From: Escherichia phage 933W
Direction: 5' to 3' (one strand)
Length of the DNA stretch: 61,670 bases
Sequence record: AF125520
A program made the position numbers. Position 1 is the first letter of the stretch. Every line of letters begins with the position of its first letter. This document shows positions 9,001 through 15,000 of this stretch, one piece after another.

Positions 9001-12000
9001 TGTCATATCTCACCTCAAATAAGTGGTTTGCTGCCTAATTTCATTTTCTGGCGACCAACACAAGTCACCTCGCCGTCAGTTGTTTTGATTTCCGGTAGCC
9101 TGCCGCGTAAATGGCTACGTTTGGAAGACATACACCAGTTTCTGGTTGCTTATGTCCAAACTCATTCGCGTACACAATGGCCGCTCGCTCCAGATTGCGT
9201 CTGTATTCTTTCTGTTGCCAGATCACGTCCTGTGCCATGAACTTAATTGGCTTAGCGTCTTCTATGCGCTCAGGCGTTTCGTGAGTACCTTTAGCCTGAA
9301 TCTGCGCTCTGCTTAGAGTAGGGCGGTGTAATACTTCTGAACTTATTGCTTCTTCGCGGGCCAGTACGCCGTTAGCTAATGCCTTTGCCTTTAAACGCTC
9401 ACGACGACGAGAACGTGAATTGCCTTTGAACTGAGTTCTGCGTGTCATATAGACCTCCTGATGAACTTTGGTGGTGTGGTAGGTGGGAGACCCATTTCGA
9501 CCTGTTTCGGCCTACTTCAATTCGGCAATAGTCCCGCAGGCCTCGCCGCTTTACGTGCGACATATTCCCGTCCATGAACCCTTCACCACACCCCAAAGTT
9601 CACTTTGGTTATTGCGCTTTGTCAGCGCCGTAGATTCATATTCGAATCGTTGTATATTCACCGCCCTGGTGAGTAATGCGTCCTGCTGACGACGATAATA
9701 ATGAACCAATAGTTCGACATTATCAAGAACTATTGGTACGAATTTTGGTGATTTATTAACTCTACGAAGTATGATTCTGATATATAAGGAAATTTATTTT
9801 TGAAAATGTGGCTGATGAAGGTTATGCGGCAGGGATCATAACTGCATGGTTTAGCGAGTTACATCAATAAATACAATTGGTTATGTTTTTTAGGTGGGCG
9901 AACGTGAGGCAAAGAAAACCCGGCGCTGAGGCCGGGCTAGATTTTAAAGTATTTATCTTTTAGAGATGTAGATGTAAAACTTTTCGCCTTTGAAAATTTT
10001 TTGTCATCAGAAGGGCTTATGAACTCATCTTTTTTGTAGGGAACCGCTAATGCTGCATCACGTCTGCGAGGCAGCTTGCTTACTTCCTCGCGCTTTTTCA
10101 TGATCAGTTATCCTTTAATAACCTATACAGTTTTGTAGGGGTACATCCTGAGGATATTGTTAAGTTCGTAGCACGCCTTTTCCGCCCATCATCGTATAAA
10201 CGAAAACCAGTAGTAGACGAATTTTCTGCGTCAAAAACTATAGACAGTATAGCGTCCCCAGACTTTTTTTGCCATTCGCATGTGCCGTTAGTTGGTTTCG
10301 TCATCTGTAGACGCCAGTCAAGAACGCCATCACTTATAGCTGAGAGATCGTTTAGTACATCTAGTACGGATTGATATCTTTCATTTGGATCTACATGAAT
10401 GCATTTGTTCACTATTGTTATTAATTTTTTATGTATATGGGGAGGATACTCTTTTAATGGATAGCAGCCATTAATTATCGACTCTCTGAGTTGTTCAATC
10501 GTGCTAAATGCAGATCTTTCTCTTTCAAAATTATCATGTCCAACACACATTCTATATATGGTTAATCCTGCCTGATATATGTCATATGTGAAATTATAAT
10601 CATTTGTTGATAAAGAAAAATATTCCGGTGGCACATGAAAATGATATCCAAACTCAGGCGCAGCTCTCGATTCCTCATTGACTAACTGAGATAATCCAAA
10701 GTCAGATAGCATGGCCTCATTTCTGTTTGATATCATAATGTTATTAGGTTTTATATCAAAATGCATAAGACCTTTTGAGTGTATATGATAAAGTCCACTT
10801 AAAAATTGAATGGAATACCGTATTATCTCCCTGCTTGTAAGATTATTTTTTTTCATTAATTGGTTTAGCGAACCATTATGATAAAATGGCATGGCTATAT
10901 AGATATTGCTCTCACATTGAGCAGCATACTGAACTTGCACAATATTTGGATGTGCATGTTTATAGAGAAGCCTTGCTTCATTAAAGTAGTCGTCGTGGTT
11001 AGTGTTTTCTTTTTTTTCTATTTCTTTAATCACCAAGTCATGAGCTAGGTGTCTGTCATGAGCCAGATATACTTTTGAAAAACAACCCTGTTCTTCTAGA
11101 TCACTAATCCATTCGAATTCTACATCAGCTCTTTTGTATGGAGTTAGCATCCCCTTACCTCCGCAGATAGTGCAGCCAAAACAGCTTCATTTGTTTCAGT
11201 TGTAAAACCAGAATTATCGATTCCATTTATATTGCGGTGTGACTTCAATATTTCTTTATACTCGATCTCTGTTAGGTTCAATGATGATTTCATGCCAGAT
11301 TTTCTAATAGTGTAATATTTTCTTACATCACTGCTTGAAAATGCTTCTTGAATAACAGCTTCTATATAAAGGCGGTCAATGCTAAGATTATCAGAGTTTG
11401 ATTCAGTAACGCGTATGGCAGCTAATTCAACATTATATAAATTAAGAATGTCGAGGATGTTATTTCTCACATACTTTAATTTTTCTGGTGTGTCTAAGGT
11501 CGAAGGTATTTTAATAACATCAACACATTTGAGTGCAGACTCATTAGTGCAATATACAACAAAAGATGTAACTTTGGGCGCCGCTCTAACACCTAGTATT
11601 CTCATTTTTTATATCCTATTTTAGAATCAGGCCGCATCTCTGCGACCATCCATCATCCAAACGTCTCTTCACTCATCCGAAGAAGCAGCAATCCGGGTTA
11701 GCACGCACAAGCTCAAGCGCATCAGTCAGCGAAAGTTCAGTACTGTACTGATGCCATTTCATATCCTTCCGCATCCAATAGATTTTCCATCTATCCAGAG
11801 AACGTATGTACTTGATTCTTGCTGATGGCAGGATGTTTGTTTCACCTGGATTGCCCTGCCACACGGGGCGCTGTTCGCCGATATCTATCGTTTGGTCATT
11901 GATGCTATAAACAATATCCAGTTCATTGCGGATATGTTCAGGCGGCCTTATGCTTTCAATGAATTGGTGAACTTCTTTTTTTACTGCTTGATATTCAAGG

Positions 12001-15000
12001 TCATTGAACGCCATCTATCCTCCTTACCCAAACGTCTCTTCAGGCCACTGGTTACCAGCTATGTGACGATGAAGTCACGAACTTTTCAGCCACTCCCTTG
12101 CCTCGATGTCATCCAGATGGCGAGATTGCTTCAGAATACCAGCTACATACTCCACCTTTGCTACTTGATGATAAGGCAACGTTATAGGCCTGTGATCCTG
12201 GTTAATGCTTGTAAATTGGTATTCTCCATCTCTGTCATAGCCAAGAACCTTAATCATGTTGTGTCCTTCAACGGTTCTGACAAACACCTCATCACCCGGG
12301 AATACTTTGGTGTTAGGCTCAATGAGTACATATTCTCCTGATTTTATTCTGGGCCACATGCTGTCTCCTTTCACACGAAGACCAAAGGCATCTGGATCAT
12401 CGCTATAAATTTTGAGCCACCCATCGCGCTCTTCGGTCATCTCGATGGCACCATCAACACCAAGAATTGCCTCACCAACCACGCGCACTAACCCTTTTTT
12501 TAATTTGCCAACAAATGAAAGAGTATCTTCATCATTCGCTCCATTTAACGAAGTGCCGTGCTGAAGCCAAACAACATCAACGTTTAGAAATTTCGCAAGC
12601 GCATTCATTTTTTCCTGACGCGGTAAAGACTCAGCATTAAACCATTTGCTAACGCCTTTGGACGAAAGAGAAAGGGCACGGGCTATAGCCATTCCCCTAC
12701 CATGTTCATCAAGACCAGCTTCTTTACAGGCTTGCGCTAGCCGCTGGGCGAATTCTTTGCGCACTTTTTCATTCTGAACCATGAGTACGATACTAAAGCA
12801 CTTGCAAAAACTTTCAGTTCAACCATAATACGTACTGAAAGTACGAAAAAGGATATTCCTATGCAAAATCTTGATGAGCCGATTAAAGGTGTCGGCATCC
12901 CTGAAGTTGCGAAGGCTTGTGGAGTTAGCGAAAGGGCTGTCTATAAGTGGCTCAAAAACGGCTTCCTCCCTAAGACTGAGTTTTTTGGGAAAACTAAATA
13001 CGCATCAAAAATCGAAGAGATTTCTGGTGGCAAATATCAAGCAAGCGAAATGCTTGAAATAAGCAAAAAGAACCTTCTGGCTGCATAAGTAACACCGCTA
13101 TTTTCACAATGGACATTCGTCCTACGTCGCTGACAAAGCGAGTCCCAATATATCTGACCAACTAAGGCCATATGCGTTTCCACGCATACCTTTCAACTAG
13201 CTATTCACTATTGGAAATCTTAAGAAATGGAACAAACAAGTTACAGCAAACTATCACAGCGAGAAATTGATCGCGCTGAAACTGATTTACTCATCAACCT
13301 GTCAACGCTTACCCAGCGCGGTCTGGCAAAGATGATTGGCTGTCATGAATCGAAGATAAGCAGAACAGACTGGAGGTTTATAGCTTCGGTCTTGTGTGCT
13401 TTTGGCATGGCATCAGACATCAGTCCGATTAGCAGAGCTTTTAAGTATGCGCTTGATGAAATCACAAAGAAAAAATCCCCGGTGGCCGCCGGGGACTCTA
13501 AGCAAATTGATATGCAATTCTGAGGGAATTACTGGATCAATCCACAGGAGTCATTATGACAAATACAGCAAAAATACTCAACTTCGGCAGAGGTAACTTT
13601 GCCGAACAGGAGCGTAATGTGGCAGATCTCGATGATGGTTACGCCAGACTATCAAATATGCTGATTGAGGCTTATTCAGGCGCAGATCTGACCAAGCGAC
13701 AGTTTAAAGTGCTGCTTGCCATTCTGCGTAAAACCTATGGGTGGAATAAACCAATGGACAGAATCACCGATTCTCAACTTAGCGAGATTACAAAGTTACC
13801 TGTCAAACGGTGCAATGAAGCCAAGTTAGAACTCGTCAGAATGAATATTATCAAGCAGCAAGGCGGCATGTTTGGACCAAATAAAAACATCTCAGAATGG
13901 TGCATCCCTCAAAACGAGGGAGGTTCCCCTAAAATGAGGGACATCCCTCAAAACGAGGGAAAATCCCCTAAAACGAGGGATAAAACATCCCTCAAATTAG
14001 GGGATTGCTATCCCTCAAAACAGGGGGACACAAAAGACACTATTACAAAAGAAAAAAGAAAAGATTATTCGTCCGAGAATTCTGGCGAATCCTCTGACCA
14101 GCCAGAAAACGATCTTTCTGTGGTTAAACCGGATGCTGCAATTCAGAGCGGCAGCAAGTGGGGAACAGCAGAAGACCTGACCGCCGCAGAGTGGATGTTT
14201 GACATGGTGAAGACCATCGCACCATCAGCCAGAAAACCGAATTTTGCAGGGTGGGCTAACGATATCCGCCTGATGCGTGAACGTGACGGACGTAACCACC
14301 GCGACATGTGCGTGCTGTTCCGCTGGGCATGCCAGGACAACTTCTGGTCCGGTAACGTGCTAAGTCCGGCCAAACTCCGCGACAAGTGGACCCAACTCGA
14401 AATCAACCGTAACAAGCAACAGGCTGGCGTGACAGCTGGAAAACCAAAACTCGACCTGACAAACACTGACTGGATTTACGGGGTGGATTTATGAAAAACA
14501 TCGCCGCACAGATGGTTAACTTTGACCGTGAGCAGATGCGTCGGATCACCAACAACATGCCGGAACAGTACGACGAAAAGCCGCAGGTACAACAGGTAGC
14601 GCAGATCATCAACGGTGTGTTCAGCCAGTTACTGGCAACTTTCCCGGCGAGTCTGGCTAACCGGGACCAGAACGAACTGAATGAAATCCGCCGCCAGTGG
14701 GTTCTGGCTTTCCGGGAAAACGGGATCACCTCGATGGAACAGGTTAACGCAGGAATGCGCGTAGCCCGTCGGCAGAATCGACCATTTCTTCCATCACCCG
14801 GGCAGTTTGTTGCATGGTGCCGGGAAGAAGCATCCGTTATCGCCGGACTGCCAAACGTCAGCGAGCTGGTTGATATGGTTTACGAGTATTGCCGGAAGCG
14901 AGGCCTGTATCCGGATGCAGAGTCTTATCCGTGGAAATCGAACGCGCACTACTGGCTGGTTACCAACCTGTACCAGAACATGCGGGCCAATGCGCTGACT

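Follow-up and report, generated by a model that had tools for sequence, protein, structure and literature searches.

The region between the repressor gene cI and the terminator ahead of OL/pL in the 933W-type Stx phage analysed here very likely holds two separate entities, a three-gene kinase unit and an independent DUF3024 cassette. The three genes of the unit encode a RuvC-fold protein, the Hanks-type kinase Stk and a small basic peptide, and the kinase is the same gene as the previously described Stk of 933W (Tyler & Friedman 2004; Friedman et al. 2011). The reading as a whole, with the unit acting in abortive infection under the control of a sensor or inhibitor and with the DUF3024 cassette standing apart, is favoured by a slight preponderance of the evidence. 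The window referred to below is the complete stretch of 61,670 nt (AF125520), which shows 100% identity to 933W-type and Phi24B records. The following features of the window are used:

11144-11605, minus strand: first gene of the module, a RuvC-fold protein of 153 aa ("res") in which Arg occupies the places of RuvC Asp7 and Glu66.
10104-11150, minus strand: second gene of the module, Stk, a Hanks-type non-RD kinase of 348 aa (Pfam Pkinase, 2e-46).
9937-10101, minus strand: third gene of the module, a basic peptide of 54 aa (vb_24B_12c), in translational coupling with the kinase.
11673-12014, minus strand: DUF3024 / PADLOC PDC-S43 gene, 113 aa, very likely an independent repressor-slot cassette outside the kinase module.
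12028-12042, minus strand: exact 15-bp direct repeat on both sides of the DUF3024 cassette, upstream copy (TGAAGAGACGTTTGG).
11657-11671, minus strand: downstream copy of the 15-bp direct repeat TGAAGAGACGTTTGG.
12075-12782, minus strand: cI repressor (HTH and Peptidase_S24), 235 aa, context outside the module (Pfam Peptidase_S24 4e-16, HTH_3 1e-5).
12775-12845, no strand assigned: OR operators, pRM and pR, from the Phi24B OR1-OR3 and pRM annotation mapped onto the window; dyads at 12776-12789 and 12831-12845.
9698-9740, minus strand: operators of OL (dyads at 9703-9716 and 9727-9740) together with the pL-like promoter that drives N, marking the slot's outer boundary.
9917-9938, minus strand: intrinsic terminator tRM, end of the immunity-region transcript or transcripts (hairpin and U-tract; -14.5 kcal/mol, z -2.9).
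11630-11647, minus strand: hairpin GGUCGCA-GAGA-UGCGGCC in the leader RNA of the RuvC-fold gene, conserved and lacking a U-tract.

When the window was searched for the operator dyad CGWAC-N5-GTWC, eight matches were found against 1.07 expected, in two clusters, one at OR (12776-12845) and the other upstream of N (9703-9740), and these operators are consistent with the Phi24B annotation. Since the dyads cluster at OR and upstream of N, the gene order is cI, cargo, terminator, OL/pL and N, which places the cargo in the rexAB slot as originally predicted. The matching gene in records AP004402 and HM208303 is annotated as cI, and the promoter scan identified the pL-like promoter as TTGATA-17-CATTAT at 9726-9698. 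The four ORFs of the original prediction (113 aa, 153 aa, the kinase and 54 aa) were all recovered on the minus strand downstream of cI. The terminator foreseen after them was found as well, and the hairpin is labelled "tRM, putative terminator for pRM transcript" in the Phi24B record; between cI and tRM the terminator scan gave no further minus-strand terminator-like site, also as foreseen. The block had been described as AT-rich, which is true of the 153-aa ORF (GC 0.348), the kinase (0.354) and the 54-aa ORF (0.376) but not of the 113-aa ORF (0.444); the corresponding values are 0.452 for cI and 0.494 for the whole window. In the promoter scan, σ70-like sites showed no excess (11 against 13.2 expected in shuffled sequence), so that the scan did not locate a promoter accounting for the very high "res" mRNA level described below. 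Three "putative operators" and a "maintenance promoter" annotated within the 153-aa gene in AP004402 (11279-11359) were rejected, as these sequences share no consensus with one another or with OR and are not picked out by an OR-site matrix.

The 153-aa ORF and the kinase gene overlap by 7 nt (11144-11150), and the kinase stop codon TGA (10104-10106) is followed after 2 nt by the ATG of the 54-aa ORF; both junctions, as well as the kinase motifs HFDIKPNN and DFG, agree with the prediction. Stop/start overlaps were found at nearly all gene junctions of the module family-wide, and the order of RuvC-fold gene, Stk-clade kinase and coupled ~55-aa ORF holds in the window and throughout the family, the RuvC-fold gene always being located upstream of the Stk-clade kinase and a coupled small ORF nearly always downstream. 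Obligate linkage with translational coupling, seen across phyla, identifies the 153-aa and 54-aa ORFs as genuine partners of the kinase. Stk, a textbook case of a prophage abortive-infection protein that defence-annotation tools list as a single-gene kinase system, thus probably has two further partners. If Stk alone sufficed in the published assays, the partners would be modulators and non-essential. The proposed multi-component defence operon is thus retained for the 153-aa and 54-aa partners, while the DUF3024 gene is removed from it as a separate cassette.

The Stk family comprises about 445 clusters at 50% identity and is cross-phylum, with members among environmental Bacteroidota, Xanthomonadales, Vibrionales and Clostridia. 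In complete E. coli genomes the module is present in 225 of 5,426 (~4%), mostly Shiga-toxin-producing strains. It recurs in the repressor-proximal slot and beside restriction-modification and AbiJ genes, and in some prophages the kinase gene is frameshifted. No description of the RuvC-fold and peptide partners or of the cross-phylum operon was found in the part of the literature searched, a literature search for a RuvC-plus-kinase defence system gave nothing relevant, and the three-gene module is absent from PADLOC v2, NCBIfam and Pfam; as far as could be determined, Stk has so far been treated as a stand-alone kinase.

Stk scores 158.8 bits against a Pfam Pkinase cutoff of 31.7, which identifies it as a Hanks-type kinase, and consists of a kinase domain (residues ~21-260) and a conserved C-terminal domain of ~75 aa (about 10107-10328) that is specific to the Stk clade and contains the invariant residues W279 and W293. 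Within the clade K42, E58, H130, D132, K134, N137 and D150-F-G are invariant, and the HRD motif is replaced by HFD, with Phe131 in at least 90% of the clade; as the Arg of HRD is missing, Stk is a non-RD kinase. Stk matches the PADLOC PD-T4-6 profiles (E 1e-37) together with many further profiles, but the PD-T4-6 label is unspecific, being assigned also to the housekeeping PASTA kinase of every S. thermophilus genome. Compared with the MAD6 kinase of MADS (NCBIfam NF047741) Stk reaches 122 bits, short of the equivalog cutoff of 460, and no mad genes lie beside it, its neighbours in the window being cI, DUF3024, the terminator and N. Membership of Stk in PD-T4-6 or MAD6 was rejected on account of the unspecific label and the missed cutoff, respectively.

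For the 153-aa protein the fold comparison, which revealed a RuvC / RNase H-like fold, is the sole decisive identification. Pfam PF02075 gave 14.2 bits (E 0.042), below the gathering cutoff of 22.2, a profile search of PDB sequences returned no RuvC or other relevant match, the NCBIfam scan returned no match, and the hhalign probability with E. coli RuvC is only 1.35% at an identity of 13-15%. The residue aligned to E. coli RuvC Asp7 is Arg7 in 126 of the 127 representatives, and both the ILG-x-[D/R] motif and the strand register are consistent with this alignment; that aligned to Glu66 is Arg or Lys65 in all 127, an equivalence taken from the very low probability hhalign alignment together with an agreeing strand register. 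The catalytic acidic tetrad of RuvC (E. coli Asp7, Glu66, Asp138 and Asp141) was accordingly not found in the 153-aa protein, which, in contrast to the Holliday-junction resolvase, is also always paired with a kinase. Glu140 may correspond to RuvC Asp141 and the four invariant glutamates that are kept may form a non-canonical catalytic site. The hairpin in the leader of the gene (67-nt spacer, z -2.3) is kept in L068-type phages with one compensatory pair.

The fast-evolving 54-aa peptide carries 16 Lys and Arg against 8 Asp and Glu, and its motif LPRRRDAALAxPY...KYFK is kept down to 38% identity. A positional equivalent is present in 68 of 76 non-redundant loci, compared with a background of 19%. 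When used in an iterative profile search the 54-aa ORF converged on 12 Enterobacterales members only, and in an all-against-all comparison the small downstream ORFs formed 16 groups with a few specific profile links between them. A single family for all of these ORFs was rejected on this basis and, for the same reason, positional conservation is claimed and not homology. Of the partners that the original prediction had left uncharacterised, the 113-aa product is thus assigned to DUF3024 and the 153-aa product to the RuvC fold, while the profile links of the 54-aa product lead only to other positional ORFs.

The assignment of the 113-aa protein is based on Pfam (DUF3024, 1e-30, 106.5 bits against a cutoff of 24.9) and on a full-length match to PADLOC PDC-S43 (4e-41, residues 1-113), the PADLOC entry being a single-gene candidate. 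The 15-bp repeat on both sides of the gene occurs in two copies only in the window with up to 2 mismatches allowed (0.12 expected), and relatives without DUF3024 have a single related copy, located between the genes for the repressor and the RuvC-fold protein. DUF3024 is missing in 52 of 54 module lineages, including phages with a 97% identical kinase, it differs from the module genes in GC and GC3, and in five of six sampled genomes the kinase is absent beside it and other cargo adjoins instead. It is this composition, together with the repeat, the absence from most lineages and the kinase-free occurrence, that marks DUF3024 as a separate cassette and makes it very improbable that all four ORFs (DUF3024, RuvC-fold, kinase and peptide) are one multi-component defence system, even though all four share the interval from cI to a single terminator, which is free of other terminator-like sites, and vary together in a transcriptome table, and even though DUF3024 adjoins the module in 933W-type and Proteus-type prophages, two lineages diverged to 37% identity, and also in Erwinia. 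This co-occurrence could conceivably reflect an optional functional link between DUF3024 and the module. The cassette tends to follow prophage repressors directly, with no demonstrable link to the kinase. An O157:H7 strain reportedly carries PD-T4-6 plus PDC-S43.

Expression and translation of partner ORFs in lysogens, which had been anticipated, is borne out for two of them, as P2 (DUF3024) and P3 (the 153-aa "res" protein) were detected by 2D-PAGE/MS in lysogens only (Riley 2012, PMC3342100). Published qPCR places DUF3024 mRNA ~10-fold and "res" mRNA ~100,000-fold above cI, and because these levels far exceed cI the single uniform transcript from cI through the terminator that had been envisaged is doubtful.

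The exclusion of HK97 by Stk, also part of the prediction, had already been published (Friedman 2011, as cited in PMC3681748 and PMC6356687). According to published accounts, Stk is nearly silent in uninfected lysogens and is activated by HK97 infection, which is aborted, the phenotype being kinase activation with widespread phosphorylation; deletion of stk is reported to leave the A/E lesion phenotype unchanged.

The mechanism proposed is as follows. Unit A (11144-11605, 10104-11150 and 9937-10101) would be one functional three-gene operon and unit B (11673-12014) an independent, lysogen-expressed DUF3024/PDC-S43 cassette. The abundant pseudo-RuvC protein and the small peptide would keep Stk off, the former probably as a non-cleaving dimer bound to branched DNA or to a phage recombination protein, until a phage recombination function lifts the inhibition. 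The freed Stk would then phosphorylate many host proteins and the infected cell would no longer support phage growth. In the HK97 record the gene at position 41 encodes an Erf-type annealing protein, and HK97 gp41 is reportedly the trigger of Stk. A specific sensor/inhibitor mechanism for Stk is put forward tentatively, as somewhat short of an even chance, and its most detailed form, where a catalytically dead RuvC-fold sensor of phage recombination (branched DNA or Erf-type annealing proteins) together with the basic peptide gates Stk and a burst of phosphorylation aborts infection, is possible but doubtful.

Other functions of the module were weighed against this. An active nuclease effector, with the RuvC-fold protein cutting phage or host DNA under phosphoregulation by Stk, is unlikely, as the first Asp, universally required in RNase H-like nucleases, is the invariant Arg described above, Glu66 is invariably replaced by Arg or Lys, the RuvC score in Pfam does not reach threshold, healthy lysogens contain the protein in abundance and the published phenotype is one of kinase activation and widespread phosphorylation. 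The module resembles type II-like toxin-antitoxin systems in having a small upstream gene in translational coupling with the gene of a potentially toxic kinase, and the frameshifted kinase genes suggest that the kinase has a cost. An addiction module stabilising the prophage or island, with HK97 exclusion as a side effect and no dedicated sensing, is nevertheless quite unlikely given the reported specific activation by HK97 infection, the recurrence in the repressor-proximal slot and beside restriction-modification and AbiJ genes, and a partner that is a highly conserved, remodelled nucleic-acid-enzyme fold unlike a simple labile antitoxin. That the module is instead a lysogenic-conversion factor, altering host physiology or virulence by phosphorylation, is barely credible; Stx phages of pathogenic E. 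coli carry it and lysogens express it, but its family extends to the environmental and distant groups named above, and in published work Stk shows little if any activity without infection and A/E lesions do not change upon stk deletion.

The module occupies the same slot as lambda RexA/RexB, from cI to the terminator ahead of OL/pL, and is likewise expressed in lysogens; as a proposed three-gene abortive-infection unit it would share with lambda Rex the multi-component logic of sensor plus effector (PMC6356687). The effector is a protein kinase and not a membrane protein, there are three genes and not two, and no match to RexA/RexB was found in Pfam, PADLOC and PHROG scans of the block. PD-T4-6, an E. 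coli kinase defence in PADLOC/DefenseFinder, has the Hanks-type kinase domain in common with Stk but by definition comprises one gene, while kinases of the Stk clade always come with the RuvC-fold gene and nearly always with the coupled small ORF. In staphylococci the eukaryotic-like kinase Stk2 is reported to be activated by a phage protein, to phosphorylate many host proteins and to abort infection (Depardieu et al. 2016); it is a single gene of another kinase clade and is not known to have a RuvC-fold or peptide partner. In HipAB and the three-gene HipBST, a toxic kinase is restrained by small co-transcribed partners, but HipA and HipT are not Hanks-type, and an HTH protein and a HipA N-terminal-like domain stand in place of the RuvC fold and the basic peptide.

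The three-gene context changes what has to be cloned, deleted and modelled when studying Stk, and leaving DUF3024 out of the system, as a separate repressor-slot gene, avoids misdirected experiments. Since the module is found in ~4% of complete E. coli genomes, mostly of Shiga-toxin-producing strains, it may affect which phages, including therapeutic ones, grow there. A pseudo-RuvC partner and a recombinase trigger would together explain, in a form open to testing, the silencing and activation of a Hanks kinase, and if the sensor reading is true, the Stk of 933W would be the founding member of a cross-phylum family in which the resolvase fold gains a new role as an immune receptor.

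The region 9800-12900 was found to be 100% identical in Stx2 converting phage I (AP004402), Phi24B and the EDL933 Stx phage, and by its sequence the window is that of a 933W-type Shiga-toxin phage. All four ORFs placed downstream of cI by the original prediction are present on the minus strand, with the 153-aa ORF overlapping the kinase gene by 7 nt, a 2-nt spacer between the kinase gene and the 54-aa ORF and a terminator after the latter:

12075-12782, minus strand, cI (ORF call)
11673-12014, minus strand, 113-aa ORF (DUF3024), downstream of cI
11144-11605, minus strand, 153-aa ORF ('res', with a RuvC fold), downstream of cI
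10104-11150, minus strand, stk, encoding the kinase Stk (348 aa; HFDIKPNN and DFG present)
9937-10101, minus strand, 54-aa ORF (orf54), the product having 16 Lys+Arg against 8 Asp+Glu
9917-9938, minus strand, hairpin and U-tract, terminator (-14.5 kcal/mol, z -2.9)

The hairpin at 9917-9938 is labelled as the pRM terminator in the Phi24B record and no further minus-strand terminator-like site was found between cI and this position. When searching the window for the operator dyad CGWAC-N5-GTWC, 8 occurrences were found against 1.07 expected, clustered in OR (12776-12845) and at 9703-9740, directly upstream of N. These clusters together with the position of the terminator give the order cI – cargo – terminator – OL/pL – N, which is the arrangement of cI-rexA-rexB in lambda, so the proposed likeness to the rexAB slot holds for gene order. 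A lone perfect match to the dyad (CGTACTAGATGTAC) is situated at 10355-10368 on the minus strand, within the 3' part of stk, and could be either a chance occurrence or a candidate third repressor-binding site. The AP004402 record places three 'putative operators' and a maintenance promoter for cI at 11279-11359, inside the 153-aa gene; these have no consensus in common with the genuine operators and are apparently artefacts of annotation. A further AT-rich gene (GC about 0.36-0.37) in the early left operon, a 156-aa ORF at 8536-9006 on the minus strand between N and cIII, resembles HK97 Gp45 and matches PHROG 1636, a group of unknown function.

The original prediction joined all four ORFs in one multi-component operon, and this stands for three of them, the RuvC-like gene, stk and the small ORF, which are co-inherited and translationally coupled. 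A forward search with patterns of the 153-aa family, using one genome per species, revealed 39 loci in Gammaproteobacteria, Betaproteobacteria, Alphaproteobacteria, Bacteroidota, Clostridia and Acidobacteria; in all 39 a Stk homologue (35–57% identity) follows directly after the 153-aa homologue, and nearly all junctions show a stop codon overlapping the next start (ATGA, TAATG or 8 nt shared). In the reverse test, where the kinase alignment was run against viral contigs, 80 loci were found and the RuvC-like gene lies immediately upstream of the kinase gene in all 77 whose upstream sequence is retained. When 1.84 billion representatives were searched exhaustively with a profile of the RuvC-like partner, 445 clusters (50% identity) were recovered, of which 254 had E ≤ 1e-10; nearly all members are stand-alone proteins with a length of about 155 aa. 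Of 5,426 complete E. coli genomes 225 carry the module, which RefSeq annotates as a kinase and two hypothetical proteins. Among its 61 non-redundant upstream neighbours 22 are HTH + Peptidase_S24 repressors, making the repressor-proximal slot a recurrent home of the module and lending further support to the rexAB analogy, while the others include restriction-modification subunits and one AbiJ-domain protein.

For the third gene the picture is less uniform. Homologues of orf54 identified by phmmer reach down to about 57% kinase identity only and share the motif LPRRR(D/E)AALAxPY(T/K)K…KYFK. Nevertheless, of 76 non-redundant loci 68 have an ORF of 45–90 aa that begins no more than 12 nt from the kinase stop; other long ORFs of the same loci give a rough background rate of 19%. 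These small ORFs fall into 16 sequence groups, each kept across genera, whose profiles sometimes match other groups and matched no true decoys among about 3,750 small ORFs; iterative searching from orf54 alone did not unify the groups. The conservation of position across the family is thus shown, and homology across the whole family only suggested.

The 113-aa product, in turn, is a full-length DUF3024 protein matching the PADLOC single-gene candidate PDC-S43, and five lines of evidence set its gene apart from the module as a separate cassette. Its base composition (GC 0.444, GC3 0.465) is like that of cI, the three module genes having a GC of 0.35-0.38 and a GC3 of 0.27-0.36. An exact 15-mer direct repeat, TGAAGAGACGTTTGG, immediately flanks the gene at 12028-12042 and 11657-11671 (minus strand) with no further copies in the window (0.12 expected), and in relatives lacking DUF3024 a single related copy lies at the junction of the repressor and RuvC-like genes; judged from sequence, the pair looks like the footprint of a cassette insertion or a cassette-exchange site. 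In phages with a 97%-identical Stk, DUF3024 is absent and the repressor is different. Of 54 module lineages, defined by clustering the RuvC-fold protein at 90% identity, only 2 have DUF3024 upstream. Finally, six DUF3024 homologues were sampled from other genera, and just the one in Erwinia adjoins the module; the remaining ones are located after a prophage repressor with other cargo, namely a ParA-like ATPase in Salmonella, an MqsA-like gene in Kluyvera and a tandem duplicate in Rouxiella, or beside DinI or tail genes.

A Rouxiella badensis prophage carries a tandem DUF3024 pair directly 3' of a CI-type repressor (L041, 4352-5342), without the kinase module. In a Salmonella P22-like prophage (L127/L128, 4448-5554) the slot between repressor and N is occupied by DUF3024 and, after it, a ParA/CbiA-like ATPase of 357–368 aa, which is another uncharacterised cargo at the rexAB position, and the equivalent cI-N slot of HK97 (L123, 4410-5314) holds Gp48 (216 aa) and Gp49 (88 aa), both without a Pfam match.

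Stk contains a full Pkinase domain (Pfam), and throughout its clade the catalytic Lys42, Asp132, Lys134, Asn137 and DFG are invariant, as are Trp279 and Trp293 in a C-terminal domain (about 75 residues, spanning about 275-348). The HRD position is conserved as HFD, which makes Stk a non-RD kinase. The curated MAD6, PknB and PglW cutoffs were not reached. The PADLOC PD-T4-6 profiles do match Stk, but the match carries little information, as in every S. thermophilus genome they flag the housekeeping PASTA kinase too; these profiles pick up Hanks kinases in general, and unrelated kinases, the Stk module included, are probably lumped together in PD-T4-6 counts from genome surveys. In otherwise intact modules stk is split by a frameshift in four IMG/VR E. 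coli prophages (L076, L077, L080 and L082) and in Pseudoalteromonas (L013), three of the four prophage loci being 1 nt shorter than intact relatives, which suggests occasional inactivation as expected of a costly or toxic effector.

In papers citing Friedman et al. 2011 (PMC3681748, PMC6356687) Stk is described as a eukaryote-like tyrosine kinase that is barely active, if at all, in uninfected cells, becomes activated upon HK97 infection and excludes HK97 through abortive infection; the exclusion phenotype named in the original prediction is thereby traced to the literature. In Phi24B, whose immunity region is identical to the window, the 153-, 113- and 54-aa ORFs are named 'res', vb_24B_13c and vb_24B_12c. 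Two proteins from genes downstream of cI were detected in lysogens only, using 2D-PAGE and mass spectrometry (Riley et al. 2012, PMC3342100): P2 (933W NP_049484), which has homologues in Salmonella phage SE1 and is therefore DUF3024, and P3 (NP_049483), whose gene adjoins that of P2 and which is therefore 'res'. By qPCR their lysogen-restricted expression was about 10-fold (P2) and about 100,000-fold (P3) above cI in the same study, and the single cI-to-terminator transcript originally proposed is consequently too simple. The two genes were named vb_24B_13c and res by Veses-Garcia et al. 2015, who found cI, stk, vb_24B_13c and res unchanged by induction; in a later transcriptome table cI, DUF3024, the RuvC-like gene and stk shift together. 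A consensus promoter scan of the window was uninformative. The leader of the RuvC-like gene contains a 7-bp hairpin without a U-tract (GGUCGCA-GAGA-UGCGGCC, 11630-11647, minus strand), which L068-type phages retain with a single compensatory pair. This hairpin may act in processing or stabilisation and may be related to the 'res' mRNA excess.

The family of the 153-aa protein was aligned to E. coli RuvC (sequence checked against PDB 1HJR). Arg7 aligns with the catalytic Asp7 of RuvC (ILGVR versus ILGID) and Arg65 with Glu66, where strand 4 ends; given a very low hhalign probability, the latter equivalence is inferred and backed by strand register. Of 127 full-length representatives 126 carry Arg7, position 65 is Arg in 100 and Lys in 27, and Arg47, Glu68, Arg78, Glu82, Glu87 and Glu140 are essentially invariant. 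The site is thus strongly constrained and repurposed rather than that of a decaying enzyme, and canonical two-metal catalysis is unlikely. The main rival explanation takes the RuvC-fold protein to be a nuclease effector of a non-canonical kind; less likely, the module would be a pure addiction module or would reprogramme the host.

In the preferred explanation Stk would be controlled by the small peptide together with the pseudo-RuvC protein, whether as inhibitor, as sensor or as both, and the block would be lifted upon infection. A Holliday-junction-resolvase fold without its catalytic acids could plausibly, as a hypothesis only, detect recombination intermediates or the recombinase itself. 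In Friedman et al. 2011 the trigger of Stk was reportedly HK97 gp41. In the consecutive numbering of the HK97 record, gene 41 encodes a single-strand annealing protein of the ERF superfamily (Pfam 2e-44), in place of which 933W-type phages have Bet and Gam.

The kinase with its exclusion phenotype is known and translation of two partners in lysogens is published, but not the function of the partners; the obligate three-gene architecture, the Arg-substituted RuvC partner, the coupled peptide and the exclusion of DUF3024 are undescribed in the literature and profile libraries searched, themselves incomplete. The three-gene view recasts the classic Stk system and yields directly testable predictions.
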